A stretch of 64,000 nucleotides of DNA from Acidobacteriota bacterium (GCA_040005235.1 JBDTZG010000016.1:36066-100065); one strand, 5' to 3'. Shown: positions 8,250 to 59,168, numbered from the stretch's first letter. Notes: generated by a model from the sequence alone, not told the origin. Program-made: numbers and translations.

Positions 8250-10947
<2,698 letters not shown>

Positions 10948-10957
10948 GAGGAGAACA

Positions 10958-12484
10958 CTACGCCCGATCGACCGCCCGTTGTATCAAAACCAACGCGCCT
11001 CCGCAGCACAACCCCGCGAGCCCCAGCAGTGCCATACCCCCGAACCCTCCCGGGTTCTCACCGGCAAGCAGCGCGCCTCTCCAGGCGTCGACGGTGACCG
11101 AGAGCGGATTGAACCGGGCAATCGCCGACAACCAGTCAGGCATCACGCGATGCGGCACCAGCGCGGTGCTGGTGAAGAAGAGCGGCATGTTCACCAGATG
11201 GACGAACGTCGCCATCCCCTCCTGCGAACGGGTAACGAAGGCGAGGATCGAGGAGAGCGCGGCGAAGGCGGCGGCGAAGAGGGCTAGATAGAGGAGGGCG
11301 ATCGCGGAGGCCGCCGGAGCCCAGAGGAGGTGGGCACCGAGGAGGCGGGCGAGGAGGAGGACGACGAGCGCCTGCACCACCAGGCGCGCCACGTCGGCCG
11401 CGAGCTTACCGGCCAGGATTGGGGCGGGGCCTGCCGGTGCGGCGAGAAGGCGGGGGAGAAATCCGGTTTGGAGGTCGCGAATCCAGCCGATGCCGGATTG
11501 CGAGGCGCCGAACAGGAGGGTCATCACGCTCACTCCCGGCGCCAGGTAATCGAGATAGGTCGTGTGGCCCGATGGGTCGAGCTGGAAGCGGTGGAAGAGA
11601 AAGCCGAAAAAGAGCATCCAGATCAGAGGCTGGCCGAGCGAAAAGGTGAGCAGGACCGGCCGGCGAAGGACGGCGCGGGTGGTGCGGCGGGCGACGGCGC
11701 GTACGGCATCGAGGGGGAGAGCCGTGTGGCCGGTGGACCTGGTGGCGAAACGGTTCGGCTGGGGTAGGGGCGAGGCATGCCTCGCTCCTACGACCTGTTG
11801 ATCGATCCACCCCTTCTCCAGCACCACCACCCGATCCGCCGCTTCGGCCGCGACGTGATCGTGGGTTGAGATCACCACGGTCACTCCGCGCGCCGCGCGC
11901 CTGCCAAGCTCTTCCCAGAGCATCGCCGTGCCTTCGGCGTCGAGGCCGGCGGTCGGCTCGTCGAGCAGCAGCAGGGCGGGGTCGTGGATCATCCCGGCCG
12001 CGAGATGCAGCCGGCGCTTCTGTCCTCCGGACCAGGTGGCGACGGGCCGGTCGAGCGGCTTTTCGATGCCGAAGGCGGCGGCGATCTCGGCGATCCGTGT
12101 CGCGCGGCGGGCGTGTGGCACGGCGTGGAGCGCGGCGATCAGGTCGAGCGTCTCGCGGCCGGACATCTCGGGATCGAGCGCGAGGTCCTGGGGGACGAAC
12201 CCGAGATCGGCTCGGAGCTCTTTCTGTTCCAACCTCCCCGCCTTTGCGGGCTCGTCCACTCCGAGCACCGTAACCGTTCCCGCACTCGTCGCCAGGCGCC
12301 CGGCGAGAATGCGGAGCAGCGTACTCTTGCCCGCGCCGTTCGGTCCGAGCAGCGCGGTGACCGTGCCGCGCGGCAGGTCGAGGTCGAGGTCTGTGAGGGC
12401 GGCGACGGCGCCGAAATCCTTCCGGACGCGGCGGAGGGAGGCCGCGAGGTCGGAGGGTTTCGGCGCCGATTCTTCAGTCGGCAT
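10958..12484 (-). CDS. ABC-2 type exporter with ATPase and permease fused in one polypeptide
   Basis: GPNGAGKST, WSGGQKRR, LLLLDEPTAGLD, STH, then a six-TM ABC-2 permease (MPDWLSAIARFNPLS). Confidence 0.9.
   Translation of the reverse strand: MPTEESAPKPSDLAASLRRVRKDFGAVAALTDLDLDLPRGTVTALLGPNGAGKSTLLRILAGRLATSAGTVTVLGVDEPAKAGRLEQKELRADLGFVPQDLALDPEMSGRETLDLIAALHAVPHARRATRIAEIAAAFGIEKPLDRPVATWSGGQKRRLHLAAGMIHDPALLLLDEPTAGLDAEGTAMLWEELGRRAARGVTVVISTHDHVAAEAADRVVVLEKGWIDQQVVGARHASPLPQPNRFATRSTGHTALPLDAVRAVARRTTRAVLRRPVLLTFSLGQPLIWMLFFGFLFHRFQLDPSGHTTYLDYLAPGVSVMTLLFGASQSGIGWIRDLQTGFLPRLLAAPAGPAPILAGKLAADVARLVVQALVVLLLARLLGAHLLWAPAASAIALLYLALFAAAFAALSSILAFVTRSQEGMATFVHLVNMPLFFTSTALVPHRVMPDWLSAIARFNPLSVTVDAWRGALLAGENPGGFGGMALLGLAGLCCGGALVLIQRAVDRA
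11764..11791. repeat. GTAG-type REP-like palindrome inside the ABC gene linker
   Basis: GTAGGGGCGAGGCA-TGCCTCGCTCCTAC: 28-bp inverted repeat with one mismatch; encodes VGARHASPL on the coding strand. Confidence 0.75.
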
Positions 12485-13322
12485 GAATGATCGTACCGAC
12501 GTGCTCGCCCGCGAGCGCTTGGGCGAGCCGCTCGGGGTGGAGGCCGTTGATGATCTGGAAGCTCTTCACCAGGCGCGCGCGGGGGAGCAGGTCGAGCAGC
12601 ACCTCGTCGAACGGCAGGGTATCCAGGTTCTTGGCGCGCAATTCGGCGACGCTAATTTTCGGGATGAACTGCGCGTTCGAGTGGGTCTTCGGATCGGCGT
12701 CGTAAAGGCCGTCAACGTCTTTGACCAGGATGACGTTGGCGCAGCCGAAGCATTCGGCGATCAGATAGGTGCCCGCGTCGGTCCGGTGAGGTGGGATGCG
12801 GCCGATCTCCGGCGGGTGCTCCCAGATGGAGTACGGGGGATCGCCGTTGAAGATCACGCCGGGCGCCGAATGGAGGAACAGCGGCAGCAGATGGCCGAAC
12901 ATCTCGGGCGGGATCGCCACCACGCCGAGCGGCGACAGCAGCGCGCCGAGAATGTGCGCGTTGCCGAGCGCGTCGGCGATCGACAGCTGGGCGAGCACGC
13001 CGGTCGGCAGCCCCAAGTCGATGCCGATCGAAAAGACGTGGCGGGAGCGGACGCCGCCGCCGGTCGAGAGGATCAGCTTGTGGGTCTTGAGCACGTCGCC
13101 GAGCACGGTGACGAGCCCCGGGAGCGCCGCGGCGCCGCGATCGACGATCGAACGCCCTCCGATCTTCACCACGTGGGCTTCGGGCAGCATGCGCACGAGC
13201 GTCGCGCGGCCTTCGGTTCCGGCGACGACGTCTTTGTCGATCAGGCTCTCGCGCATCAGCATCGAGGCGAGGTGGTGGCGGGCGTCGGCGGGGTGGGTCG
13301 GGTGGGTCGGATCTTCGTACAT
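12474..13322 (-). CDS. mosA: Molybdenum storage protein alpha-like subunit (amino-acid kinase/UMP kinase fold)
   Basis: HHLASMLMRESLIDKD, VVKIGGRSIVDRG, GGVRSRHVFSIGIDLGLP, IPPHRTDAG, LAGEHVGTII recall Azotobacter MoSto subunits; tandem with the beta-like gene. Confidence 0.78.
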   Translation of the reverse strand: MYEDPTHPTHPADARHHLASMLMRESLIDKDVVAGTEGRATLVRMLPEAHVVKIGGRSIVDRGAAALPGLVTVLGDVLKTHKLILSTGGGVRSRHVFSIGIDLGLPTGVLAQLSIADALGNAHILGALLSPLGVVAIPPEMFGHLLPLFLHSAPGVIFNGDPPYSIWEHPPEIGRIPPHRTDAGTYLIAECFGCANVILVKDVDGLYDADPKTHSNAQFIPKISVAELRAKNLDTLPFDEVLLDLLPRARLVKSFQIINGLHPERLAQALAGEHVGTIIHAD

Positions 13323-13353: not shown

Positions 13354-14178
13354 TCAGGCCACCGAAATCAGGGTGCCGACGTCTTCGCCGTCGAGGGCGC
13401 GGGTGAGGTTGCCGGGGACCAGGCCATTGATCACGCGGATCGATCTCATGTGGACCGCCCGCTCCATCAGGTCGAGCACGGCGCGTTCGACGACCAAATC
13501 GCCGAGATCGAGGGCTTTTAGCTCGGCCACCGTGATCTTCGGGATGAACTTCGCGTTCTTGTCCTTCTTCGGGTCGGCGGTATAGAGGCCGTCCTCATCT
13601 TTGACATAGATCATCGAGCGCGCGCCGAACACTTCGCTCACCAGATAGGCGCCGGTGTCGGTGCGGTGCGGCGGGATGCGACCGATCGCAGGGTTCTGCT
13701 GCCAGAAGGTATAGGGCGGCATGCCGAAGAAGACCGCGGCGCGGCGCTCGGCCAAAAACAGCGGCAGCTGGGGAAACTGCGCCGGCTCGATGAACGGGAT
13801 GCCGTGGCGGGCGAGCAGGTAGTGGATCATCCGCGCGTTCTGCATGCTGACGAACGTGCCGAGGACGCTCATGACTCCCGTCGGTAGGCCGAGATCGAGC
13901 GCCACGCTATAGGCGTGACGGGCGCGGGTGCCGGCTCCCGTGCCGATGATCATCCGATGGCGGGGGAGGTTCGCCACGACCTCTTCGAGGATCGGGAACA
14001 CCGCGGCGCGTCCGCGGTCGATCATGCTCTGGCCGCCGATCTTCACCACGTTCGCTTCGGGCAGGATGCGCTCGACCGGCCCGATCGTCTGGCGCATCAG
14101 ATCGCGGTCGGAGAGCGATCCCGCGACAAGGTTTTTGCCCAATTCGGTGAGCAGATCTCCGCTCAACGCTTCCGTCAT
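13354..14178 (-). CDS. mosB: Molybdenum storage protein beta-like subunit
   Basis: RILPEANVVKIGGQSMIDRGRAAVFP, GTGAGTRARH, GMPPY, VKDEDGLYTADPK, NGLVPGNLTRAL. Confidence 0.82.
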   Translation of the reverse strand: MTEALSGDLLTELGKNLVAGSLSDRDLMRQTIGPVERILPEANVVKIGGQSMIDRGRAAVFPILEEVVANLPRHRMIIGTGAGTRARHAYSVALDLGLPTGVMSVLGTFVSMQNARMIHYLLARHGIPFIEPAQFPQLPLFLAERRAAVFFGMPPYTFWQQNPAIGRIPPHRTDTGAYLVSEVFGARSMIYVKDEDGLYTADPKKDKNAKFIPKITVAELKALDLGDLVVERAVLDLMERAVHMRSIRVINGLVPGNLTRALDGEDVGTLISVA

Positions 14179-15004: not shown

Positions 15005-17158
15005 CTAGTTCTTGCACTGGGGCGAGGCCGGCGTGGTCATCGCGCAATTGTCCGCGGTTCCCCCCGGTACCGTGGCGCCCCACAGCGGAGCCGCCTGGTT
15101 CGGGCAGGTGGTCTGCACGCTCACCATCATGCCGCGGTCTTCGTGGCCGAGGAAATGGCAGTGGATCACGTACTCGCCGGTGAAATCGAGGAACCGGCTG
15201 CGGGTGACGATCGAGCCCCAAGTGAGGCAGCCGCACACCGACTGCTGGCCCGGCACGGTGGTCTTCCATTGGCCGTTCCACGTTGCGCCCGCGTTGGTGC
15301 AGACCGTCGGGCATTTCACTTTGGCGTCGTCGTTGCTCCAGATCGGCCCGGCGTTGACGTCGGTCGGCGTCGTCGCCACGGAAGGCAGCGGGAACGTGTC
15401 CCACCAGATCCAAGGCGGGTCGAGGGGCTTGCCGTTCTGGGAGATGATTTGGTACGGGTTGGTGTGGATGTGGAACGGATGCTTCGGCCGCGAGCTGTTC
15501 TGTACCGTCCACTGCTCGGCCTTCCCCAGCGTCATCGTATCGTCGACGCAGGTCGGATCGAACTGCTTGTTGTTGATGAAGAAGGCGTTCTGCTGTTTGC
15601 CCTGCACGCCCGTCATGCTGAACAGGATCGTGCGGTCGTTCCCGATCTCAGACGTCTGAATGTCTTTGAGGAACGGCGGCATCGGCGGCCATTGCGCCTG
15701 GGTGGGGTAGGTCATCGGTTTCGGAGTGCCGACGACATTTACGGTGAGAAGTGGCGGCTTCGTGACGGTCGCGGCGGCGGTGGAAAGCGCGGCGGAGAGC
15801 CCCTTGAGCGAACCTTGAAGCAGCTGAGTCTTTCCGCCCTGGGGCGCGGCCCGGAGATTTTGTAGTAGACCCTTGCGCTGAACGTCCAGCCGGGCTTTGA
15901 TCGCCGGATCGAGCTGGCCGATCACGTCGTAGGTCAGGAGATGGAGGCCCGAAGTCATGGGCGCCTGGACCAACAGGTCGACGCGATTGCCGGGCGACAG
16001 GACCATGTTCTGGACGCCTTGGGAGATCAGCGGCTGGCTGCCGTAGTTTTCGGGCGCGAACTGCACGCCGTCCTGGGCGATCTGCTTTAAAATCGGTGCC
16101 GATCTCGTTTCAAAGCCGATCGTCAGCTGGGCCGATGACTGCATCGTTTCGTTAACCAGGCGCCAGCGCTGGATCTCGCCCGGACGCATGGTGATTATGG
16201 GATTGGCCTGGCCGTTGATCAGCGGCGAAGGCGGTGCGTAGGTAGGGTCTTTCTCGAAGAAGTTCAGCTCGTTGTCCAGCTGCTGGACCACCAGCAACTT
16301 CTCGTCCAGACCGCCCGATGGTTTGAAAAAGCCGTTCAGCCAATCGTCGAAAGGCCCGTGGATCAAAAGGGCGCCGCCCATGCCGTTCAGCAGCTGGAGC
16401 GCCACCGCGCCGTGTTTGTGCGGGTGGTACCAGTGGGTGCCTTCGGCCTGATTTGAGGGGAACGGGTTGATCGAGTACTGGTAGGTGCCGGTGGCGGCGA
16501 GGCCGCGGCTGTGGGCGTGAACCATGCTGCCGGCAGGAGTGCCCTCTGGCGCCAGATCGAGCAGCACGTAGTCCTGCGGCGCCTGGGGCGAAACGTGGGT
16601 GCCATGGAAGTGCAGGTTGGTGTTGTTGTCGCCATGGAAGCAGGCGGGGAACGTCTCTTGCGGACAGCCGTTGGCACAGGTAGAGGGGCAGGGCTGGCCC
16701 GCTGCCGGGCAGCATTCTTTGTTGCTCGCAGAACAGGCCGAATCGCAAGGGCCGCCCGTGCTGGGCAGCACCGGCAGCTGATTGACCAGCAGGATCTTCA
16801 ACGCGTCGCCGTCGCTCGACGTCGGGGTGGTGGCGCGGCGCACGCTGAACGTGGGGCCCGGGGTCGAGAAGATCAGCTGGGTGCTCCCCGGCTTGGCCGG
16901 GAAGCCATAGGTGCGCAGCTTCATCGACTGCATCTGCCAGGTGGTTGTCGCGTTGTCGAACACCGGCACGCAGGGGTTGTCCTTCATCTGCACGACCAGT
17001 GTGGTGGAGAGGATGTGGTTGGGGTCGGCGGTCAGCACCGTGGGCTGCTTGAGAGGTTGCAGCTGGGCCGGCCCGCAGGGCGTCTGGGCGCGGGCGGCAC
17101 CGGTGAGAAGAGCCAACAGGAATACGGCGGGGACGGCGAAACGTAAGCGTTGGATCAC
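15005..17158 (-). CDS. Secreted multicopper oxidase with Cys-rich insert and MVL-type mannan-binding lectin insert
   Basis: GGAGG then GTG 17158; signal ...LLTGAARA/Q; copper motifs NLHFHG, WYHPHKH, HPFHIH, HCHFLGHEDRGMM. Confidence 0.9.
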   Translation of the reverse strand: MIQRLRFAVPAVFLLALLTGAARAQTPCGPAQLQPLKQPTVLTADPNHILSTTLVVQMKDNPCVPVFDNATTTWQMQSMKLRTYGFPAKPGSTQLIFSTPGPTFSVRRATTPTSSDGDALKILLVNQLPVLPSTGGPCDSACSASNKECCPAAGQPCPSTCANGCPQETFPACFHGDNNTNLHFHGTHVSPQAPQDYVLLDLAPEGTPAGSMVHAHSRGLAATGTYQYSINPFPSNQAEGTHWYHPHKHGAVALQLLNGMGGALLIHGPFDDWLNGFFKPSGGLDEKLLVVQQLDNELNFFEKDPTYAPPSPLINGQANPIITMRPGEIQRWRLVNETMQSSAQLTIGFETRSAPILKQIAQDGVQFAPENYGSQPLISQGVQNMVLSPGNRVDLLVQAPMTSGLHLLTYDVIGQLDPAIKARLDVQRKGLLQNLRAAPQGGKTQLLQGSLKGLSAALSTAAATVTKPPLLTVNVVGTPKPMTYPTQAQWPPMPPFLKDIQTSEIGNDRTILFSMTGVQGKQQNAFFINNKQFDPTCVDDTMTLGKAEQWTVQNSSRPKHPFHIHTNPYQIISQNGKPLDPPWIWWDTFPLPSVATTPTDVNAGPIWSNDDAKVKCPTVCTNAGATWNGQWKTTVPGQQSVCGCLTWGSIVTRSRFLDFTGEYVIHCHFLGHEDRGMMVSVQTTCPNQAAPLWGATVPGGTADNCAMTTPASPQCKN

Positions 17159-17339
17159 GTTCGTTTCCTCCCAAGGCCGCCGCCGGGAAGCGGGGTCAAC
17201 GAGCCTCCGGCGGCAGGGTTGATCAGACGGTGAATTCAAGGCCGAGGCTACACCCGGAGTTGCGCGAGGTCAAACGACAACTAGAGGATGCAAGAGCTAC
17301 TTGCCGGTCCGCTCTCCTGCGGCATACCATCCCCGCCTC

Positions 17340-22159: not shown

Positions 22160-23227
22160 ATGAGCTTGAAGCCGATCGACAGCATCGTGGGCCACCTGGG
22201 TGCCGACGCGGACGACCTCCTCTCTTTCACCTGCAAGGGCATCCCCAAAGAGATGCTGACCCTTCCGGGTCCCGATTACATCGACCGGGCGTTCGCGCTC
22301 TCGGACCGGAAGACCCAGGTGCTGGTGAACCTCGGACGGCTCTATGGCACCGGCCGGCTCGCGAACACGGGGTATCTGTCGATCCTGCCGGTCGATCAAG
22401 GCATCGAGCACTCGGCGGCGGCTTCGTTCGCGCCGAACCCGATCTATCTGGAGCCGGAAAACATCGTCAAGCTCGCGATCGAGGGGGGCTGCAACGCGGT
22501 CGCCTCGACGGTTGGCGTTCTCGGGGCGGTCGCCCGGAAGTACGCGCACAAAATCCCGTTCATCGCCAAGATCAACCACAACGAGCTGCTCACTTACCCG
22601 AACAAGGCGGAACAGATCCTGTTCGGCTCCGTCGAGCAGGCCTGGGAGATGGGCGCGGCGGCGGTCGGCGCCACGATCTACTTCGGTTCGGATGACGCCT
22701 CTCGCGAAATCGTCGAGATCGCCGAGGCGTTCCGGCATGCGCACGAGCTGGGGCTCGCGACCGTCCTCTGGTGCTACACCCGGAACAACGCTTTCAAGAA
22801 GGACGGCGTCGATTACCACACCGCCGCCGACCTCACCGGTCAGGCGAACCATCTCGGCGTGACGATCCAGGCCGACATCATCAAGCAGAAGCTCGCCACC
22901 TTGAACGGTGGCTACCCCGCGATCGGCTTCGGCAAGACCAGCCCGAAGATCTACGGCGAGCTGGTCACCGACCATCCGATCGACTGGAACCGCTGGCAGG
23001 TCGCCAACTGCTACCTCGGCCGGATAGGACTGATCAACTCCGGCGGAGAATCCCAAGGCGCCGCCGACCTCGCCCACGCAGTCCGCACCGCGGTGATCAA
23101 CAAGCGCGCCGCAGGCTGCGGCCTGATCTCCGGCCGGAAAGCCTTCCAGCGCCCGATGGCCGAAGGCGCCGCGCTGCTCATGGCGATTCAGGACGTGTAC
23201 CTGTGCGACGAGGTGACGGTGGCGTAA
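22160..23227 (+). CDS. fbaB: Class I fructose-bisphosphate aldolase (DhnA/FbaB type)
   Basis: [49 protein letters not shown]. Confidence 0.95.
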
Positions 23228-23251
23228 GGGGTGGGGCAGGGAGCTGGCCCG

Positions 23252-23385
23252 ATGCCCAGAGCTGACATCTACTGGATACCTGGCCCATGGCTGGGACGCT
23301 TGGCCATCGTGCCCCGTCCCCGGGGTAGTGACTGGCTCGGGGACGAGGCGCGGGCTTGGCGGGATGCCGGACTCTCGGTCATTTG
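23252..23385 (+). pseudogene. Truncated N-terminus of a small tyrosine/dual-specificity phosphatase
   Basis: MPRADIYWIPGPWLGRLAIVPRPRGSDWLGDEARAWRDAGLSV resembles this family's N-terminus; no HCxxGxxR catalytic loop follows. Confidence 0.6.
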
Positions 23386-23548
23386 GCGCCGGGGGTCGTT
23401 GGTGCGCTGGAGACGCCCCGACAGCCAGCACCCGGGTAGGTCTGTGGTCGCGTCCTGGGGCGTCTCTACCCCCTGCAGTGCCTCCGAGCAGGCGCGTAAA
23501 CCCTGATAGCCTTGGCGCCTTCCGGTCTTTCGGAGGAGGCGCGCCGCG

Positions 23549-26449
23549 ATGAATCTCCCCACCCTCGCTTCTCAGGTCGTCGAAGCCCTGGCTCCGGCGT
23601 TGCCGCTCCTGCTCGGCACGGCGGGAGCGATCGGTGGATCGGTGGCGAAGGAGATCGGAAAAGACGTCTGGGAGAAGGGGAAACAGATCTGGGGCCGCGT
23701 CGGCGGCACGATCGAAGCGAGCCCTGCGGCTAAGGAGATCGCACAGGAGCTGGCCGCTGATCCCGAGGACGCCGACCTCAAGAGGCAGCTGGCCGACCGG
23801 CTCGCGCGGCTGCTTGCAAAGGACGAGGCGCTCGCCACTACTCTCGCCGCTTGGGCCAGCGAGAGTGTCGTGGTGCAGAACCAGGGGTCCGGCCCTGCGG
23901 TAGCCGCCGCCACGAAGGGCATCGCGGCAGGTCATGACCTCGTCAATATTCAGACGGTCAACGTCTATCTAACCACCATCAACCGCGAGCTTGCCGCCGT
24001 CGCTCCGGCGGTCGATCTGGAGCAGGGGATGCGGCGTTATCAGGCGTATCTCCTGTCGCGGCACACCCACCTCGAATTTCGCGGCATGGGCGTCGACCGC
24101 CTGGTGCTCAAGCTGCCGCTCACGGAAGTCTACGTGCCGGGCCGCGCGCGGGTGCGGGCTCCCGAGGGGGACTCGTGGACGCGAATCGCGGCACGCCTCC
24201 GGGGTCGCGAGCCGGGCGCTGAGGACGTCGAATCGATGGGGGAGCGAGGTCGCCCGGCCGAGCTGCTCGATCTGTTGAAAGACAAGGCCGGGCTCGTACT
24301 GCTCGGCGATCCGGGGGCGGGCAAGTCGACGTTCTTGAAGTTCCTCGCGCTCAAGGCCGCGCGCGGTGAATCCGAAGAACTCGGTCTCGGCCTTCGGCTG
24401 CCGCTGCTCGCCCCGCTCGCGGCGTATGCCACGCGCCTTGGCGGGGAGCCGGGCTTGAATCTCCAGTCTTTCCTCGCCGAGCAGCTCGCCGAACAGGGGG
24501 TGCAGGTCAACGCCGCGCGCCTGCTCGCCGAGGGGCTCGGCAAGGGGCGAATGCTGATCCTGCTCGATGGCCTCGACGAGGTGGCGGACGAAAAGCTGCG
24601 CCACAAGGTAGCCGCGCGGGTGAAGGACTTCTTCTGCGCGGTCCAAGGGGACGGCAACAAACTGGTCGCGACCAGCCGGATCGTCGGCTATGCCGAGGCG
24701 CGGATCGAAGCGGAAGGCCTGGGCGAAGGCACGCTGGTCGATTTCGACGACGACGAGATCGAGGCGTTCGTGACCCGCTGGACCGCGGCGGTCGAACGCG
24801 CCGCGCGGGGCGAGGGCGATGCCGCGACCTTCGACGCCGAGCGCGAACGCACGGGACTGCTGGCGGCGATTCGTCGCGACTCCGGCGTCGGGCGCTTGGC
24901 CGCAAATCCGCTCCTCCTCACCATTCTCGCCCTGATGAAACGCCAGGGGGTGGAGCTGCCCGAGCGGCGGGCGGAGCTCTACTCAACCTACGTCCGCGTG
25001 CTGATCCACCAATGGAATCTCGCGCGTTCGCTCTCGGGCGAAGCGGTCGCCGGTCTCGACGTGGGCGAAACGCTTCGGGTTCTCGCCCCGCTCGCGCTCT
25101 GGATGCAGGAGACCTCCGGCGCGCGCGGCATGGTTACGGAAGAGGCGTTGCAAGGGGAGCTGCGCCGCCTCTTTGCCGATGAGCCCGATCCGGCGCAGGC
25201 GGCGGCGCGCTTTCTATTCGACGTGCGGAAGGACACCGCGCTCCTGATCGACCGCGGAGGCAAGACTTTCGGCTTCATCCACCTCACTTTCCAGGAGTAC
25301 CTGGCGGCGGTCGCGCTGGTCCAAACCGCGCAGATCGAGCTACCGCCGCTGGTCGAAGCGCTCGCGGCCCGAGTCGGCCAGCCGGAGTGGCTGGAAGTGA
25401 TTCGTTTGGCCATTGGCGATCTCGCGCGCGATCGTCCCGAAGCCGCGGGGCGGATGAGCGAACAGATCCTCGAAAGCCGACCCGGTCCGCCGGGCGAGGC
25501 CGAGATCTTTGCCGGCCTCGCGGCGCTCGACATCGGCCGCAAGGGTCTCCCCGCCGCCTCGCGCGAACGCGCGGTCGGCGCGCTGCTCTCGACCCTGCGC
25601 GACGACGAGCGAGTGCCGGCCGGCATCCGCGCCCAGGCGGGCGAAGTGCTGGCGGATCTGGGCGACCCGCGCCCGGAGGTGACGACGCTCGCCGGAATGC
25701 AGTTCTGCCGGGTGCCGGCGGGTCCATTTCGGATGGGGAGCGAAGAGCGCGACGAGGATTCTTACTTGGACGAGCGGCCGCAGCACGATCTCGACCTTCC
25801 CGAGCCGTACGAAATCGGGCGCTTCCCGGTCACGGTTGCGCAGTTCGCGGAATACGTCGTGCGAAGCGGCAACCCTCCCGGCGATCCGGACGCTTTGCGC
25901 GGCGGGGTGAACACTCCCGTCGTCTGGGTGAGTTGGCACGGGGCGACCTCCTTCTGTCGCTGGCTCACCGAAACATGGCGGGAGGAAGGGAAGTTGAAGG
26001 CGGACGGGCAGGTGCGCCTGCCGTCGGAAGCGGAGTGGGAAAAAGCTGCGCGGGGCGGCTTGGTCAACAATCCGGCGCCGACGAGAAATTACCCCTGGGA
26101 GGGGGCCTTCGATCCGAACCGGGCTAATTGCAACGCCACGGAGATCGGGAGACTGAGCGCGGTGGGCTGCTTCCCCGGTGGGGCGAGCCCGCACGGAGTG
26201 GAGGAGCTGGCGGGGAATGTGTGGGAGTGGACCCGGAGCGTTCGGGCCGAGAAGTTCAGCTACCCCTACGTGCCTGGCGACGGTCGGGAGGACCTCGAAT
26301 CTCCCCTTCAGGTGGTGTTGCGCGGTGGGGCGTTCCTCGATCGGCCGAGGGTCATCCGTTGTGCCGTTCGCGACTGGGGCGAACCTGACGGTCGCTACGA
26401 CGGTGTCGGGTTTCGTATCGTGGTGTCCCCGTTCCTCTCTGGCCTCTGA
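23549..26449 (+). CDS. STAND/NLR-like protein 1: Bell-like helical domain, amyloid-like motif, NACHT NTPase, FGE-sulfatase (C-type lectin fold) domain
   Basis: GGAGG RBS; LLGDPGAGKST, LILLDGLDEV, NPLLL, FIHLTFQEYLAA; GDPR; RLPSEAEWEKAARG, GNVWEW, VLRGGAF, GFR. Confidence 0.92.
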   Translation: MNLPTLASQVVEALAPALPLLLGTAGAIGGSVAKEIGKDVWEKGKQIWGRVGGTIEASPAAKEIAQELAADPEDADLKRQLADRLARLLAKDEALATTLAAWASESVVVQNQGSGPAVAAATKGIAAGHDLVNIQTVNVYLTTINRELAAVAPAVDLEQGMRRYQAYLLSRHTHLEFRGMGVDRLVLKLPLTEVYVPGRARVRAPEGDSWTRIAARLRGREPGAEDVESMGERGRPAELLDLLKDKAGLVLLGDPGAGKSTFLKFLALKAARGESEELGLGLRLPLLAPLAAYATRLGGEPGLNLQSFLAEQLAEQGVQVNAARLLAEGLGKGRMLILLDGLDEVADEKLRHKVAARVKDFFCAVQGDGNKLVATSRIVGYAEARIEAEGLGEGTLVDFDDDEIEAFVTRWTAAVERAARGEGDAATFDAERERTGLLAAIRRDSGVGRLAANPLLLTILALMKRQGVELPERRAELYSTYVRVLIHQWNLARSLSGEAVAGLDVGETLRVLAPLALWMQETSGARGMVTEEALQGELRRLFADEPDPAQAAARFLFDVRKDTALLIDRGGKTFGFIHLTFQEYLAAVALVQTAQIELPPLVEALAARVGQPEWLEVIRLAIGDLARDRPEAAGRMSEQILESRPGPPGEAEIFAGLAALDIGRKGLPAASRERAVGALLSTLRDDERVPAGIRAQAGEVLADLGDPRPEVTTLAGMQFCRVPAGPFRMGSEERDEDSYLDERPQHDLDLPEPYEIGRFPVTVAQFAEYVVRSGNPPGDPDALRGGVNTPVVWVSWHGATSFCRWLTETWREEGKLKADGQVRLPSEAEWEKAARGGLVNNPAPTRNYPWEGAFDPNRANCNATEIGRLSAVGCFPGGASPHGVEELAGNVWEWTRSVRAEKFSYPYVPGDGREDLESPLQVVLRGGAFLDRPRVIRCAVRDWGEPDGRYDGVGFRIVVSPFLSGL
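26315..26428 (+). repeat. Candidate DGR variable repeat VR1
   Basis: 114 bp colinear with 29189..29302; differences concentrated at codon positions 1-2; identical 3' block. Confidence 0.65.
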
Positions 26450-26507
26450 GCTCTGGGCCCTCTGTTCTCTGGCGGGCACTTGCGGAAACCCCACCCGCCC
26501 TTCGACC

Positions 26508-26518
26508 TTGCTAAACTG
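26508..26518 (+). promoter_or_regulatory. Extended -10-like element TTGCTAAACTG upstream of NLR 2
   Basis: TGn-TAAACT; the same 11-mer occurs at 29372..29382. Confidence 0.45.
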
Positions 26519-26551
26519 AGCGCTCATCCTTGTTCAGGGAGCGCGGAGGCC

Positions 26552-29338
26552 GTGACGAAAAGAGCAGAGCCCGACGGGACCGACCTCGTACGCTCGGCGC
26601 TCGCGGCGCAGGGGTACTCGGAAGAAAAGATCGCGGAGATTCTCGCGGGTCTGGGTGGCGCGCATGCGAAGGCGGAAAGCCAGAGCGCCGTGTCGCAAGG
26701 GGGTGGCGCCGCCGCGACCGATCACGGCATCGCGGTCGGGGGTGACGTTCATGGCGGCATGACCGTGGTGCAACCCGGAGTCTCCGGCGCGCCGACCGGT
26801 AAGACTCTGGACGAGGCGTACCTCCGCTATCTCTGCGCCGAAGTGAGCCGGGTCACCCTGTCGCAGATCGATTCTTCGGTCGAAGGCGCCGATCCGCTCG
26901 CGAAGTTTGAGCTTCACGCGGTCTATACCGCTTTGCTGACCACGACTCCTCGCGGCAAGCCGGGACGCGAGATGCCTGCCCCATCGATGTTGGATCGTGG
27001 AGTGCGCTCCCTGTCCGCGCTCGAACTGCTCGACCTGCACCCGCGGTTGGTTCTACTCGGCGATCCGGGTTCGGGCAAGAGCACGTTCGTCCACTTTGTG
27101 GCGCTCTGTCAGGCGGGGGAGCGAGTCGGCGCCCCCTGGCCGGATCTCGGCGTGCTCACCGCCCCCGTTCCCGGGGAAGAGAAGGTACAGCCCTGGCGGC
27201 ACGGCACGCTCGTGCCGGTGCGAGTGATCCTCCGTGACTTTGCGGTCGATGGCCTGCCGGCGCTCGGGGAGAAGGCAACGGCAGAGCACCTCTGGCAGTT
27301 CATCGCAGGCAGCCTCGCCGCGGTGGGGGTCGGCGACTACGCGCCCCGGCTGCGAGATCGACTCCTTTCCGAAGGCGGGCTCGTGCTGCTCGACGGTCTG
27401 GATGAAGTCCCGGACGCTGCGGGCCGGCGGTTGCAGATCCGCGAAGCGGTGGAGAGCTTCTCAGGGTTGTACACCAAGTGTCGGGTTCTGGTGACCAGCC
27501 GGATCTATTCGTACCGCAGCCAGGGTTGGCGCCTTACAGGCTTCGAGGAAGCGGAGCTGGCGCCCTTTTCCGACGCGCAGATCGAGCGCTTCGTGAAGGA
27601 TTGGTACGCCCACGCGGCGAGCCGCGGGCGCGGCAGCGCGGAGGATGCGGAGGGCCAGGCGCGCTTGTTGGTCCAAGAGATCGAAGGAAACCCCCGCCTG
27701 CGCGGTTTCGCGGAGCGACCACTATTGCTGACGTTGATGGCGAGCCTGGCGCGGGCGCGCGGCCGGGGCTTACCGGATCGGCGGGCGAAACTCTACGAGC
27801 AGGTGGTCGAGCTGCTACTGGACCTGTGGGAATGCGTTCGCTATCAGAAGGACAAGGAGGGAAAATACCGCCTCGTCCAGCCCAGCCTTTCCGATTGGTT
27901 GAAGACCGACCGTAGCGCCGTGCGGGAAGTGCTCGAAGATCTCGCCTTCGAGGCGCATTCCGCGCAAACCGCCGCCGAGGGTACGGCCGACATCGCGGAG
28001 AAAGACCTGGTGGCTCGGTTGGTGAAGCTCGCCGGGAGCGAAGAGGTCAGCCAGAAACAGCTGGTCAAGTTTCTGAGCGAGCGTTCGGGGCTCTTGATCG
28101 CACGCGGCGTCGAGGTTTTCACCCTGCCGCACCGAACGTTTCAAGAGTACCTAGCCGCCTGCCATCTGACTCGCGGCTCGTTTCCCGATGAGGTGGCGGA
28201 GCTCGGCCGGCAGGACCCCGACCGCTGGCGGGAGGTCGTACTCCTTGCCGCCGCAAAAGCCGAAGAGGGAACGGTCGCCAACGTCTGGACGCTCGCCCGG
28301 AGCCTTTGTTCGGTCGATCCGGAGTCCGCGGAGTCGGAGCTGCCAGACGCCTTGGGCGCATTCTTGGGAGGTCTCGCCTTGGTCGAGTCTCCCCGGGCGC
28401 TGGGCCAGGTAGGGCGACAGAATCGCGATCAGCTCGAACGGCTGCGCCGCTGGCACATCCATTTGCTCGGAGACGAGCGCTTTCCGGCCGTGGAGCGCAC
28501 GGCGGCGGGGACGACGCTTTGGGCGCTGGGCGATCCGCGTTTCAATGAGGAGACGTGGTTTCTGCCGAAGGATCCGCTGTTGGGATTCGTGGAGATCCAG
28601 GAGGGCAATTTCCGCATGGGGGAGGACGCCGGGCTGCACGAGGTCTTTCTCCCGACCTTCTACATGGCGCGTTGGCCGGTGACGGTGGCGCAGTTCCGGG
28701 CGTTCGCGGTGGCGGCACAATACGAAGGGGTGCCGAAGGAGTTCTTGGACCGTCCGGGAAGCGATCCTGTCGTGTCGGTAAACTGGCACGACGCCTTGGC
28801 GTATTCGCGTTGGCTGGGGGGGCGTTTGCTGGCCGAGGCGGAGAAGAAAAAAGCGTCTGGGTGTGGAGACGAGGAGCGCGAGCGGGCATTCTGGCAAGGT
28901 CTGGCATCGGGCGACCTGTCGGTGAGGCTGCCGTCAGAAACGGAGTGGGAGAAGTCGGCGCGGGGCGTCGCCGGTCTGACCTACCCATGGGGCGAGAGGC
29001 ATGCGCGGAATCGGTCGAACGATTACGATTCAGGGGTAGGGAAGGTGAGTGCGGTCGGCTGCTTTCCGCGTGGTGCGAGCCCGTACGGGGTGGAGGATCT
29101 GGCGGGGAACGTGTGGGAGTGGACCCGGAGTGTTTGGGGCGAGAAGTTCAACTACCCCCCCGTGAAAGGTGACGGAAGGGAGGACCGAGTATTGCGCGGC
29201 GGGGCGTTCAACGATCTCCCCTGGTTCGCCCGGTGTGCCGTTCGCCACAGGTACGCTCCCGCCGACCGCAACGGCAGTGTCGGGTTTCGTATCGTGGTGT
29301 CCCGTTCCGATCTGGCCTCTGAGTTCTCTGGATTCTGA
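26552..29338 (+). CDS. STAND/NLR-like protein 2: N-terminal amyloid-like motif, NACHT NTPase, FGE-sulfatase (C-type lectin fold) domain
   Basis: GGAGG then GTG 26552; LLGDPGSGKST, LVLLDGLDEV, RPLLL, LPHRTFQEYLAA; GDPR; RLPSETEWEKSARG, GNVWEW, VLRGGAF, GFR. Confidence 0.92.
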   Translation: MTKRAEPDGTDLVRSALAAQGYSEEKIAEILAGLGGAHAKAESQSAVSQGGGAAATDHGIAVGGDVHGGMTVVQPGVSGAPTGKTLDEAYLRYLCAEVSRVTLSQIDSSVEGADPLAKFELHAVYTALLTTTPRGKPGREMPAPSMLDRGVRSLSALELLDLHPRLVLLGDPGSGKSTFVHFVALCQAGERVGAPWPDLGVLTAPVPGEEKVQPWRHGTLVPVRVILRDFAVDGLPALGEKATAEHLWQFIAGSLAAVGVGDYAPRLRDRLLSEGGLVLLDGLDEVPDAAGRRLQIREAVESFSGLYTKCRVLVTSRIYSYRSQGWRLTGFEEAELAPFSDAQIERFVKDWYAHAASRGRGSAEDAEGQARLLVQEIEGNPRLRGFAERPLLLTLMASLARARGRGLPDRRAKLYEQVVELLLDLWECVRYQKDKEGKYRLVQPSLSDWLKTDRSAVREVLEDLAFEAHSAQTAAEGTADIAEKDLVARLVKLAGSEEVSQKQLVKFLSERSGLLIARGVEVFTLPHRTFQEYLAACHLTRGSFPDEVAELGRQDPDRWREVVLLAAAKAEEGTVANVWTLARSLCSVDPESAESELPDALGAFLGGLALVESPRALGQVGRQNRDQLERLRRWHIHLLGDERFPAVERTAAGTTLWALGDPRFNEETWFLPKDPLLGFVEIQEGNFRMGEDAGLHEVFLPTFYMARWPVTVAQFRAFAVAAQYEGVPKEFLDRPGSDPVVSVNWHDALAYSRWLGGRLLAEAEKKKASGCGDEERERAFWQGLASGDLSVRLPSETEWEKSARGVAGLTYPWGERHARNRSNDYDSGVGKVSAVGCFPRGASPYGVEDLAGNVWEWTRSVWGEKFNYPPVKGDGREDRVLRGGAFNDLPWFARCAVRHRYAPADRNGSVGFRIVVSRSDLASEFSGF
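29189..29302 (+). repeat. Candidate DGR variable repeat VR2
   Basis: Ungapped alignment with 26315..26428; retains AAC and AGG codons where VR1 has CTC, TAC and TGG. Confidence 0.65.
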
Positions 29339-29371
29339 ACTCTTGCCCTCTGTACTCTGGCGAGTGGCACT

Positions 29372-29382
29372 TTGCTAAACTG
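29372..29382 (+). promoter_or_regulatory. Extended -10-like element TTGCTAAACTG upstream of the Bell-like gene
   Basis: Identical to 26508..26518; 36 nt before ATG 29419. Confidence 0.45.
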
Positions 29383-29418
29383 TTGGTATCCACTTTCACA
29401 CGGTGCGGGAGATGCGTA

Positions 29419-29907
29419 ATGGAAGGCATGGATCTCAGTTTGATCGCCCAAGCAACGATCGCGGTTCTCGGCCCCCTCGTCGGCCAGCTGTTTTCGGTCG
29501 GTGGCGAGAAGGCGGTCGAGGCTGCGGCGGGGAAGTTCGGCGAGGGCATGTTCGAACGGGCGAAGGCGGCGTTGGGCAAGCTCGGCAAGAAGGCCGAGGC
29601 CAAGCCGGGCGCTCCAGAGGCCGCGCGGGCGGTGGCCGAGACACCGGACGACACTTACGCGCAGGCGGAGCTGGTGCTTCACCTGAAGAAGATCCTTGCC
29701 GCCGATCCGGATCTGGCGGCGGAGCTGGAGCAGATCGTCCGGAAGAGCCCGGCGGGGAATGTGATGATCGCGACCGCCACCGATCGCTCCGCCATCGGAC
29801 AGGGGGGCGGTGCGGCGGCGGCGGGCGGCGGTATCGCGATCGGTGGCAACGTCTACGGCGGCGCGCGGTTCGATCGCGACGAAGAAGGCGGCGGCGGCAA
29901 GCGGTAG
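29419..29907 (+). CDS. Small Bell-like helical effector with C-terminal amyloid-signalling-like motif
   Basis: Helical domain aligns by eye with the NLR 1 N-terminus (PDDTYAQAELVLHLKKILAADPDLAAEL vs PEDADLKRQLADRLARLLAKDEALATTL); C-terminal SAIGQGGGAAAAGGGIAIGGNVYGG. Confidence 0.85.
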   Translation: MEGMDLSLIAQATIAVLGPLVGQLFSVGGEKAVEAAAGKFGEGMFERAKAALGKLGKKAEAKPGAPEAARAVAETPDDTYAQAELVLHLKKILAADPDLAAELEQIVRKSPAGNVMIATATDRSAIGQGGGAAAAGGGIAIGGNVYGGARFDRDEEGGGGKR

Positions 29908-29924
29908 CAGGCGAGCTGATTTCA

Positions 29925-30344
29925 GCGCTTGCCCCGCACAATTCGGCCGATGACTTGTGCGATTCCGCGATTGACGTGTGCGAAAACGCCGTCACAGCGC
30001 ACGATTCCGGCGCTGATTTTTACAGGACGGCCGTCGGCGAGGGGTCGCGAGGCGTCGAAAATTGGATTCCTGCCGTCCACAAGGGGTTCTCAGCCGTCGA
30101 CGCGTGCAGGCCGGCCGTTCCTTTGTGCGAGTTTCCCGTTCGCAAGGCCTCGCGAGCCGCGAAAAATAGGTCGGCAGCCATCGATTCGCACATGTTTCTC
30201 GCTGCCTTGTGCGAAATTTTGGTTCACCGATCGTTGTGGGCGGCAGAAATCCCATTGGCAGCGGCGTACGAGGGACCGGCGACGGACGACGCTCGTGTGG
30301 CGGCGGTTGAAATCCTGTCGGGGGCGACCGAGACGGGATCGTGA
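29925..30344 (+). repeat. Degenerate tandem array, 21-bp period, about 20 units
   Basis: Units in phase start with GCCGTC/GGCGTC/GCCGTT/GCCATC-like anchors; recurring in-phase sub-words TGTGCGA, TCGCGA, AGGGGT. Confidence 0.8.
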
Positions 30345-30472
30345 GCGGTCGGCGATCTACCGAATACCGGGGACGGTTTTATCGTGGGGCATGATCCTCT
30401 TCGCGCCCGGACGGCGCCTACTCTAACGAGAAGGCGAAATCCTTCGTCCTTCTGAAGAACAGGGGACCGTCC

Positions 30473-30661
30473 ATGAAATCGAAGCGCGACAAGAAGCTGG
30501 CCTTGAGTGCAGAGACCGTACGCCGCCTGAACAACTTCGAAATGGCCGAGGTGGCGGGCGGAATCACCTCGATCTGCACCGCCAACCCCAACGCCGGCTG
30601 TACGACGTCGGACCACTGTACCGAATCCTGCGGCCCGATCTCCGTCTGCATCTGCCGTTGA
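30473..30661 (+). CDS. RiPP precursor, lanthipeptide-like (double-glycine leader)
   Basis: Leader MKSKRDKKLALSAETVRRLNNFEMAEVAGG; 32-aa core with 6 Cys, 5 Thr, 4 Ser; AGGGGA RBS. Confidence 0.8.
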   Translation: MKSKRDKKLALSAETVRRLNNFEMAEVAGGITSICTANPNAGCTTSDHCTESCGPISVCICR

Positions 30662-30770
30662 CCCTATCGAGCGAGGGTGCTGGACGGACGGAACCGAGCC
30701 GTCCGGCGCCTTCGCGAACCCGTCCTCTACGCCGGGGTGGCCCTCCTCGCTGTGCTATAAATTCGCTCCC

Positions 30771-31637
30771 GTGACGCGTCTTGGAGACCTCGAGCTGGCC
30801 CTGGTCGGCGATGGAGAGTTTCGCCTCGACGGCGGAGCCATGTTCGGGGTCGTGCCGAAAGCGCTCTGGGCGTCGATGAAGGTGCCGGACGCCGACAACC
30901 GCATCCGCATGGCGACGAACTGTGTGCTGGTCCGGCGGGGGAGCGACCTCCTCCTGATCGACACCGGGATCGGCGACAAGCACAACGCCAAATTCGGCGA
31001 GATCTACGACCTAGACCCCCACGCCGTCCGCCTGCCAGAGGCGATCCGAGGGGCCGGTTTCGAGCTTTCAGACGTCACCCACGTCCTGCTGTCGCACCTC
31101 CATTTCGACCACTGCGGCTGGAACACCCGCCGCAACCCGGAGGGCCGGGTCGTTCCGACCTTTCCGAACGCCCGCTATTGGCTGAACCGGGGGGAGGTCG
31201 AGCACGCCAGGAACCCCAGCGAGCGCGACCGGGCGAGCTACTTTCCCGACAACTGGGAGCCGCTGTTCGAGGCGGGCCAGGTCGAGCTGTTCGACGACGA
31301 GGCCGAGCCGATGCTGGGGGTCCGCGCCGTGCGCGCCCCGGGGCATAACGCGGACATGTGCATCGTTCTACTAGATGGCGGAGTCCCCGACGGGGTCCCG
31401 CAACGTGCCGTGTTCTGGGCCGATCTGGTGCCGACCGTCGCCCACGTGCCGCTCCCCTGGATCATGGCTTACGACCTCTATCCGCTGACGACGCTGGAAA
31501 ACAAGAAGAAGTGGCTGCCGCGCGCCTCGGAGGAGAATTGGCTCTGCATCTTCGAGCACGATGCCGAAACTCCCCTCGCCCGCCTGGCCTCGGACCGGCC
31601 GGGGCGTTTCCGCGTCGTACCTGTCGCGGCTCCTTGA
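30771..31637 (+). CDS. Metallo-beta-lactamase-fold hydrolase (YtnP-like)
   Basis: FRLDGGAMFGVVPK, LIDTG, SHLHFDHCG, PGH, WIMAYDLYP, FEHD. Confidence 0.92.
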   Translation: MTRLGDLELALVGDGEFRLDGGAMFGVVPKALWASMKVPDADNRIRMATNCVLVRRGSDLLLIDTGIGDKHNAKFGEIYDLDPHAVRLPEAIRGAGFELSDVTHVLLSHLHFDHCGWNTRRNPEGRVVPTFPNARYWLNRGEVEHARNPSERDRASYFPDNWEPLFEAGQVELFDDEAEPMLGVRAVRAPGHNADMCIVLLDGGVPDGVPQRAVFWADLVPTVAHVPLPWIMAYDLYPLTTLENKKKWLPRASEENWLCIFEHDAETPLARLASDRPGRFRVVPVAAP

Positions 31638-51374: not shown

Positions 51375-51577
51375 GGCGCCTTTCTCAAAAGACGTGGCTG
51401 ACGTTTTGTCGCCCCGGTGGATCGGACGGCCCTCGCCCTCTGTGGGACGAAAACCACCCGGCACGGTGACCGCGGCGGACCCCTACACGCGCGATTCGGT
51501 TGTAATGAAACACGGCAAGGATATAGCAGATCGGGAGGGCGCCACAGGGGAACTCTGGGTAGCCTCCGAAACGCGAA

Positions 51578-58797: not shown

Positions 58798-59168
58798 TGG
58801 CGCTCTCCAAAGAACACGGCGGGGCAGATCGCCCGGATAGAGCGGTTCTCGCCTGCGATTTGGAGAGAGCCCGCCCGGTTGGCGTGGCGAACCCTCCACG
58901 CTCGAGTCTGTCGAACTGACTGGATAACGACCGGAGGTTAGCAGATCTGAATTGCGTTTGCCCTGGGAATTAGGGTGGGCCTGCGGCTACAGGAATTGCG
59001 ACTTCTCTGGGCCCCGCCCGTCATCCCAAAGCCCGCGCGCTTCACGGCATCAGACCGCGCTTCGCAAGGCTACGAAAGACCGCCTGCTAGCGGCTCGCCG
59101 AATCGTCCGACGAGCACGATATTCTTAGGCCTCGACCTTTGAACCGCCCTCGGGAGGAAGAGAGAGTG

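Follow-up and report, generated by a model that had tools for sequence, protein, structure and literature searches.

A candidate Bell/BASS-type NLR locus with lectin-fold sensors and traces of a lost diversity-generating retroelement in an Acidobacteriota genome

We analyzed a 64,000-nucleotide (nt) stretch of an Acidobacteriota genome (GCA_040005235.1, JBDTZG010000016.1:36066-100065), hereafter the window, in which three co-oriented open reading frames (ORFs) within positions 23549-29907 probably form a cell-death locus. ORF calling and translation gave two proteins resembling nucleotide-binding oligomerization domain-like receptors (NLR1 and NLR2) and one small protein. We read the three genes as an NLR locus of the Bell/BASS (bacterial amyloid signaling sequence) type, with lectin-fold sensors and an ancestral diversity-generating retroelement (DGR) since lost from this genome, and put the probability of this reading at roughly 0.6. 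A first-pass annotation of the window had proposed a helical domain, a Gly/Ala motif, NACHT and FGE for NLR1, the same without the helical domain for NLR2, and a helical domain plus motif for the small gene. Pfam and pairwise alignments bore out this order, and with it the presence of an all-in-one NLR and a two-component pair in a single locus. The features, numbered from the first nucleotide of the window, are as follows.

23549..26449 (+): NLR1, all-in-one receptor of 966 amino acids (aa); Bell-like helical domain, motif, NACHT and FGE/C-type-lectin (CLec) domain (ORF, translation, Pfam)
23549..23863 (+): N-terminal Bell-like helical domain of NLR1, aa 1-105 (likeness to the small protein; a row of the profile alignment)
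23870..23968 (+): diverged Gly/Ala motif of NLR1, aa 108-140 (NLR1/NLR2 alignment, orthologues)
24296..24787 (+): NACHT NTPase of NLR1, Walker A at aa 253, Walker B at aa 336 (Pfam PF05729, 39.8 bits)
25706..26422 (+): FGE-sulfatase/CLec-fold sensor of NLR1 (Pfam PF03781, E 2.5e-45)
26333..26416 (+): fossil variable region (VR) of NLR1, 28 codons (differences at template-repeat (TR) adenines, third-position identity)
26508..26518 (+): TTGCTAAACTG element, about 34 nt 5' of the NLR2 start (word count, relatives)
26552..29338 (+): NLR2, two-component receptor; motif, NACHT and FGE/CLec domain (GTG start proposed; the ORF opens with TTG at 26480)
26666..26758 (+): N-terminal Gly/Ala motif of NLR2 (19 of 31 residues identical to the C-terminal motif of the small protein)
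27026..27613 (+): NACHT NTPase of NLR2 (Pfam; Walker A at aa 194, Walker B at aa 301, ORF counted from 26480)
28586..29296 (+): FGE-sulfatase/CLec-fold sensor of NLR2 (Pfam PF03781, E 4.2e-43)
29207..29290 (+): fossil VR of NLR2, 28 codons (TR-adenine differences, third-position identity)
29372..29382 (+): second TTGCTAAACTG copy, 5' of the small gene (word count, relatives)
29428..29907 (+): small Bell-like protein, 159 aa from ATG 29428 (homologues, alignment; alternative starts 29419 and 29383)
29428..29763 (+): helical domain of the small protein (structure model with 115 sequences)
29770..29862 (+): C-terminal Gly/Ala motif of the small protein (NLR2 match, family alignment, partner scores)

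Receptors, shared motif and small protein

Both receptors have the tripartite layout of an NLR, with an N-terminal effector or adaptor, a central NTPase and a C-terminal sensor. The NACHT model (cut-off 26.7 bits) matches NLR1 at aa 250-413 and NLR2 with 32.2 bits, and the Walker A (GDPGAGKS / GDPGSGKS) and Walker B (LILLDGLDE / LVLLDGLDE) motifs are intact in both. The FGE-sulfatase domain covers aa 720-958 of NLR1 and aa 703-939 of NLR2, and the two proteins share 34% identity along their length. The NCBIfam library added sub-threshold FGE-fold relatives and a match to an antiphage NACHT model at the level of the P-loop only. Thus the NACHT and FGE domains proposed for the receptors were matched by profile, whereas the small protein matched no Pfam family at E<=1.

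A Gly/Ala/Val-rich motif of about 30 aa occurs in all three proteins; it is C-terminal in the small protein and immediately precedes NACHT in the NLRs. Residues 130-160 of the small protein align with NLR2 aa 63-93 (E 6e-8). The NLR1 copy, which lies between the helical domain and NACHT, is more diverged, and orthologous NLRs of the NACHT1 type have GSGAIAQ...GHD(I/L)VN at its position. Among relatives the small-protein consensus is G(S/D)GAIAQGxGAVAAGxGGIAIGGxVxG, and the NLR N-termini carry the same motif family. In composition the motif is 37% G, 17% A, 16% V, 6% I and 1% K, with P and L near 0 and N plus Q at 5%.

We compared the motifs of eight small/NLR pairs by summing local alignment scores over all 40,320 possible pairings. 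The cognate pairing sums to 515 against 398 +/- 31, a value reached by 6 of the 40,320 permutations; the cognate partner is best in its own column in five of the eight pairs, and the NLR2/small pair of the present locus is the best matched of all, with a score of 92. Because the motif copies are paralogous segments, this excess means concerted evolution of the partners, as would be expected if partners must fit each other. By position and partner similarity, then, the motif behaves like a putative BASS-type amyloid signaling motif, as the first-pass annotation supposed: it stands at the C-terminus of the effector and the N-terminus of the adjacent NLR, with partner-specific likeness. Prediction of a complex between the NLR2 N-terminus and the small-protein tail (score 0.01, mark 0.32) counts neither for nor against.

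The helical domain is shared by the small protein (aa 47-108) and NLR1 (aa 31-92), with 32% identity over 62 aa (E 2e-7). A profile of 17 such domains from the same lineage, scored against 1.84 billion cluster representatives, gave a family of 2,653 representatives at E<=1e-3 and 1,217 at E<=1e-10, mostly of 130-165 aa; 115 of 149 family proteins examined among the best 150 of the 2,653 have <=200 aa. Ten long matches carry NACHT and FGE (four), NB-ARC and TPR (two, the canonical Bell-NLR fusion), NACHT only, another P-loop ATPase, pentapeptide repeats, or no domain (one each). In an alignment of 115 sequences, 107 of 111 have an acidic residue (D or E) at position 2, ahead of a hydrophobic helix; the Kyte-Doolittle mean is 1.68 for aa 3-22 versus 0.09 for aa 1-110. 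The AlphaFold2 (AF2) model built from these 115 sequences, which replaced a poor one from 17 sequences (pLDDT 58.8), is all-alpha, with helices at 3-22, 30-34, 39-58, 62-71, 76-92 and 94-106. Its confidence by block (pLDDT) is 66-95 over aa 1-110, mostly 84-95, and below 50 in the tail, which is disordered in the monomer model.

These traits are those given for Bell in the text of the Dyrka preprint (10.1101/2020.01.06.895854): a helical domain of about 100 aa whose N-terminal helix is hydrophobic, with an acidic amino acid at position 2 or 3, in proteins mostly of 120-140 aa, sometimes or rarely at the N-terminus of NLRs. Judged by alignment and model, the domain carries every describable Bell trait, namely size, acidic position 2, hydrophobic helix and all-alpha fold, a likeness by description and not by profile match; the earlier proposal that it is Bell-like holds to that extent. 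A word-index homologue search with the profile returned 20 proteins, nearly all without a name, and a cluster look-up of 10 family representatives gave no link by accession to published Bell proteins. The ESM Atlas returned clusters of about 139-aa proteins without names and, at rank 15, a HetE-N lead, an identity that hmmscan did not bear out, HetE-N matching none of the 115 family members. Tail types in the family include a RHIM-like IQVGQ tail, SGERSVAIGGNVSGSTIxTGD, and GSGAIAQGxGAVAAGxGGIAVGGDVxG, which is the tail type of the present locus. The first two we presume to be published BASS classes; a Pfam scan of seven RHIM-like-tailed members gave no match to a RHIM model.

As for gene boundaries, NLR2 most likely starts at GTG 26552 and not at TTG 26480, because GGAGG precedes the GTG and the same-genus orthologue starts there; the motif lies within the protein with either start. 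For the small gene the likeliest start is ATG 29428, which fits the family consensus MDxxLLA, or else 29419, which gives the form entered in the protein database. An overlapping 313-aa ORF (29403-30344), Arg/Gly-rich and without a Pfam match, reads as out-of-frame sequence, and ORF 29929-30426 was rejected as a gene since it reads as non-coding. The 11-mer TTGCTAAACTG has two matches in the window versus 0.08 expected, about 34-46 nt 5' of the NLR2 and small-gene starts. A 10-mer of it lies about 25-40 nt 5' of small-gene or NLR starts in relatives' loci, including L032 at 8664-8673(-) and 13635-13644(-) and L033 at 8880-8889(+) (L, G and C numbers are our handles for loci, genomes and contigs). 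The element may be a common promoter or operator of the cassette; a sigma-70 consensus scan of 23200-30800 gave no promoter.

Related loci, the retroelement and the flanks

A class-wide search found relatives of the small protein in 10 of 401 genomes, the present one included, all 10 in the same order. Domain mapping of 17 relatives' regions gave 10 loci with a full-length free small gene. In seven of these a NACHT-FGE gene directly adjoins the small gene and is co-oriented with it, two (L037, L038) keep only a truncated NLR remnant, and the tenth (L033) has no NACHT-FGE gene within 18 kb. Linkage of the small gene to NACHT-FGE genes elsewhere, one of the expectations of the first-pass annotation, is therefore found in related Acidobacteriota genomes. 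Loci without a reverse transcriptase (RT) that have an intact NLR-then-small pair are common (L034, L036, L039). The NACHT-FGE gene of L035 is spread over two frames and runs off the end of its contig. Comparison of flanks across genomes showed that the neighborhood is not conserved.

Two of these regions have features of their own. L045 (genome G149, contig C152) holds a same-genus NLR1 orthologue, 72% identical over aa 63-854, which is split between two frames and has lost most of the Bell-like domain, an example of rapid cassette decay. In L039 the NACHT-FGE gene adjoining the small gene (9308-13030, minus strand) has an N-terminal extension of about 450 aa, in which a deviant Walker A, KGGVGRT, like that of ParA/MinD ATPases, was noted by eye; no other motif in the set has diverged as far as the one in this gene.

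Three of the ten relatives' loci, those of G209 (same genus), G281 and G389, contain an RT in the order all-in-one NLR, TR, RT, small gene, second NLR. These RTs have LPIGNLTSQFW and YVRYVDDLL, which we take to be typical DGR RT motifs. The TRs, of 130-140 nt, match the NLR 3' ends at 84-90% identity, and within the 28-codon TR/VR core 13-16 of the 21-26 TR adenines are mismatched, against 0-1 of the 58-63 other positions. These three loci thus carry a DGR, with an RT, adenine-specific TR/VR differences and a VR at the C-terminus of a CLec domain. Among these genomes G281 has 64 RVT_1 matches, many with identical scores (130.9 and 106.1 bits), a pattern that points to group II introns, or a similar retroelement, having multiplied extensively in this relative.

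Neither a template repeat nor a DGR RT was found in the present assembly (6.2 Mb, 140 contigs). The VR-like 3' end of NLR1 matches only itself and the NLR2 end across the whole assembly, and a relative's TR matches only the NLR2 end. A search for RTs (PF00078) gave one strong match, on another contig, and one 24-bit fragment. The strong one, with the YADD and GFDFLGY motifs that are usual in group II intron maturases, is the only RT that a relative's DGR RT matches here, at 29% identity. This RT/maturase, the only strong RT of the assembly, lies at the end of contig C11 (L003, G000). An active DGR working in trans from elsewhere in the genome was rejected because the assembly holds neither TR nor RT, an unassembled copy being possible. 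Contigs of two metagenome runs cover 25900-29950 with 0 differences, which is weak evidence because the assembly may derive from these runs and rare variants are lost in contigs; a further run, X3, contains almost nothing of the stretch, which does not argue for its absence. On the evidence of the assembly, the locus is not currently diversified.

The footprint of past diversification is a different matter. The tips of NLR1 and NLR2 differ at 17 of 26 positions where the TR of G209 has adenine versus 6 of 58 elsewhere (Fisher 5e-7), or, counted by codon, 13 of 16 versus 4 of 12 (p 0.019). Third-position identity between the two genes is 0.67-0.80 over the last ~100 codons versus <=0.60 (mostly 0.2-0.5) upstream, and in the final 50 codons it is at least as high as at positions 1 and 2. 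Similarity continues past the stop codons (26428-26473 versus 29301-29346, 76%), with repeated CTCTG(G/A) words; VR 3' ends in relatives have the same SPF..S..* coding end and CTCTGA words, and this stretch may be the DGR target-recognition element. The homogenized 3' stretch, about 300 nt, is longer than the relatives' TRs, so gene conversion may have contributed. Because the tips differ where the same-genus TR has adenines, they are fossil variable regions of a lost DGR. The claim that the sensors are diversified by a DGR accordingly fails for the present genome and holds as history, given the DGRs in three relatives' loci and the TR-adenine footprint.

Upstream of the locus, Pfam identifies an amine-oxidase-like flavoprotein, a beta-lactamase-family protein and a DeoC-type aldolase; downstream are a lactonase-like protein of the metallo-beta-lactamase (MBL) fold and a dihydrolipoamide dehydrogenase-like flavoprotein. 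A 62-aa ORF at 30473-30661 (+), Cys/Thr/Ser-rich in its C-terminal half, is matched by the NCBIfam model for the leader domain of class I lanthipeptides (NF038153; 26.9 bits, cut-off 22, E 4e-6) and lies just 5' of a gene for a YtnP-like MBL-fold lactonase (30771-31637, below cut-off). Farther along are two giant ORFs of 2,930 aa (42672-51464, minus strand) and 2,420 aa (51637-58899, minus strand), built of 375-nt tandem repeats (12 copies, 60-95% identity) that are DUF11 domains, with 11 and 7 stretches in the parts scanned. Positions 15005-17239 (-) encode a multicopper-oxidase-like protein in which an MVL mannan-binding domain (E 5e-14) is embedded.

Known systems and competing explanations

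The closest published counterparts are the Bell/BASS pairs of Dyrka 2020, which the main text of that preprint describes with NB-ARC or NACHT plus TPR/WD repeats, in agreement with the first-pass statement that such signaling is mostly known with TPR/WD40 sensors. Common to both are a small protein with ~100 helical aa, a hydrophobic helix at its N-terminus and an acidic position 2; a short motif at its C-terminus that recurs N-terminally in a neighboring, collinear NACHT/NB-ARC protein; and the rare all-in-one fusion of the helical domain to an NLR. In contrast to that text, the sensor here has an FGE/C-type-lectin fold, the host is an acidobacterium (the Bell alignment there lists one Granulicella sequence), the small gene lies 3' of the NLR, and the all-in-one NLR keeps a copy of the motif. 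The Gly/Ala-rich motif was compared with BASS by text description only.

The Bab/Agp system of E. coli (BASS11, "Babybell"; Ibarlosa 2024 preprint), presented in the preprint text as an abortive-infection system in which helix 1 is proposed to be released on templating, likewise has a small helical executioner with an N-terminal hydrophobic helix. Its C-terminal amyloid motif is common to the executioner and the adjacent sensor, as is the putatively amyloid motif here. Its sensor, however, is TPR-GreA/B-C-PIN and not an NLR, Babybell has about 80 aa, and PDB sequence and fold searches from the present locus gave no match to it.

On the sensor side, NACHT/STAND-FGS proteins with adaptor-linked effectors and DGRs have already been described in general terms (Kaur 2021, PMC8195603; Dore 2024, PMC10907252), and targets of DGR clade 5D are covered in the text of Dore 2024 in PNAS. 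As these texts present them, such systems share with ours a NACHT or STAND (signal transduction ATPase with numerous domains) core with a C-terminal FGS/CLec sensor, duplicated targets, and an N-terminal module repeated on a separate effector protein. They have a DGR RT and TR in the locus, as do relatives of the present one; the present genome, unlike them, lacks the DGR. The adaptor/effector here is Bell-like with a BASS-like motif, and not the EAD1/2/7/8 (effector-associated domains), bDLD3, peptidase or TIR of those texts.

The antiphage bNACHT proteins of the Kibby 2022 preprint have the NACHT core in common with our receptors, whereas the three proteins here reach no PADLOC or NCBIfam defense model beyond the P-loop. 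That text names FGS as one of two "antigen receptor-type" C-terminal domains, and we saw in it no tested bNACHT of exactly the present architecture. The main texts of the Dyrka and Ibarlosa preprints and of the 2025 ASM paper make no mention of FGE, sulfatase, lectin or retroelement. In the literature searched, only two papers contain both "amyloid signaling" and "diversity-generating retroelement", each with the first term in its reference list alone. Each part is already published, and the combination was found in no main text searched, supplements lying outside that scope; the architecture may be listed in Dyrka Table S2, the source data of Kaur Figure 2, Dore SI Figs S10-S11 or Kibby Table S1.

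Several results weigh against a Bell/BASS-type locus. The small protein is unmatched in Pfam, NCBIfam and PADLOC, libraries that hold no Bell model, and PADLOC gives only P-loop-level matches for the NLRs. Of the 21 matches that Foldseek listed for the helical domain against the PDB, none reached E<=0.001 (best E 2.7, TM<=0.27), and a profile search of PDB sequences gave nothing significant; the missing fold match does not decide the matter, because Bell-type folds vary widely in topology, according to the Bab/Agp preprint. In composition the motif agrees only partly with BASS as the text of the Dyrka preprint describes it (enriched in Q, N, G, V and I, depleted in K, P and L), having more Ala and less Asn/Gln, and partner ranking fails in two of the eight loci (L035, L039). 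The flanks are housekeeping genes by Pfam, with no defense island. Truncated copies in relatives show that the cassette family decays readily, and near 29300 the NLR2 3' end has a 1-nt deletion in the C-run after GFRIVVS, compared with NLR1 and all relatives; because of it the last residues are SRSDLASEFSGF in place of the family's SPF(L/S)S(G/D)L.

The same wiring would also arise if the motif were an ordinary homotypic adaptor, on the principle of the effector-associated domains, that joins the proteins in a stoichiometric complex through contacts such as a beta-solenoid or glycine zipper, with no amyloid templating. We consider this unlikely, although it would fit the Gly/Ala-rich, Asn/Gln-poor composition, a weak match of one family member's tail to the YadA_head repeat (E 0.013), and the account in the text of Kaur 2021, where EADs of STAND-FGS proteins recur on separate effectors, often with DGRs, and amyloid is not invoked. 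Pfam EAD1-11 match none of the three proteins at E<=1, EAD10 matching 2 of the 115 family members. The motif, moreover, is short (~30 aa), disordered in the monomer model and exactly at the BASS position, and the helical-domain family also bears RHIM-like IQVGQ tails; RHIM-like BASS3 motifs formed fibrils, as reported in the Dyrka preprint text.

With the NLR-to-Bell wiring unchanged, the locus could instead serve self/non-self or kin recognition, or other signaling, in an aggregating soil bacterium. Bacterial NACHT proteins protect against phage in the Kibby 2022 preprint text, as does one Bell-related amyloid pair in the Bab/Agp preprint text, and neighborhoods that differ between genomes, with fast turnover, are as for defense genes; a role other than against phage is to this extent improbable. 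It would agree with the housekeeping flanks, the blank PADLOC result, and the part of fungal counterparts in allorecognition and enrichment of Bell/NLR pairs in multicellular bacteria given in the text of the Dyrka preprint.

It is less probable again that the locus is a decaying relic whose sensors went unmaintained after DGR loss and whose genes are becoming pseudogenes. The absence of TR and RT, the altered NLR2 tail, and truncated or frameshifted homologues in L037, L038 and L045 are what this would predict, yet all three ORFs are full-length with intact Walker motifs, the NLR2/small motif pair leads the eight pairs in score, and RT-less loci with an intact NLR-then-small pair are common. 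Finally, the small protein could be an Avd-like DGR accessory left after RT loss and not an effector, Avd proteins being small helical bundles. This is very improbable: the small gene does lie directly 3' of the RT in three relatives, and the text of Kaur 2021 mentions a four-helical accessory protein, but the small protein is homologous to the NLR N-terminal domain and shares its tail motif with the NLR N-terminus, 7 of 10 relatives' loci have its gene next to NLRs and lack an RT, its family numbers thousands and is also fused to NB-ARC-TPR, and it has no Pfam match.

Proposed mechanism and wider meaning

Under the Bell/BASS-type reading, and by analogy with published Bell/BASS and Bab/Agp work, the lectin-fold tip would bind an invader-derived ligand, and NACHT would oligomerize, bringing the N-terminal motifs together as a cross-beta nucleus. 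The nucleus would template the same fold in the tail of the small protein, and templating would free the N-terminal hydrophobic helix of the Bell-like domain, so that the membrane is attacked and the infected cell killed. NLR1 would act in cis with its own executioner; more speculatively, the motif that it retains could also recruit the free effector. Since the sensor tips are frozen former VRs, the repertoire would be fixed at two specificities.

A broader claim is possible, at rather less than even odds: that in an acidobacterial lineage, NLRs with DGR-rewritten lectin tips, an adaptive-like repertoire, are wired to a pore-forming Bell-type executioner through a new, Gly/Ala-rich class of prion-like amyloid motif. 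If true, it would supply an effector arm for the "uncharacterized N-terminal extensions" of DGR-diversified STAND sensors and would be the first link of targeted hypermutation to amyloid signaling in immunity. The window would then capture the outcome of DGR loss: a repertoire frozen at two receptors, which still trigger the same effector.

Until now Bell/BASS amyloid signaling downstream of NLRs, known with TPR/WD sensors and demonstrated in one E. coli system, and the other line of work on "multicellular" bacterial immunity have run apart; this locus and its relatives combine amyloid signaling of the NLR Bell/BASS type, as we predict it, and hypermutable sensors in one cassette. Motif-templated activation of a small membrane-targeting protein would give hypermutable sensors a concrete, testable output, and the DGR-bearing and DGR-less versions of the same system offer a natural comparison. 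An all-in-one NLR with its motif retained hints at how the two-component and fused architectures turn into one another.

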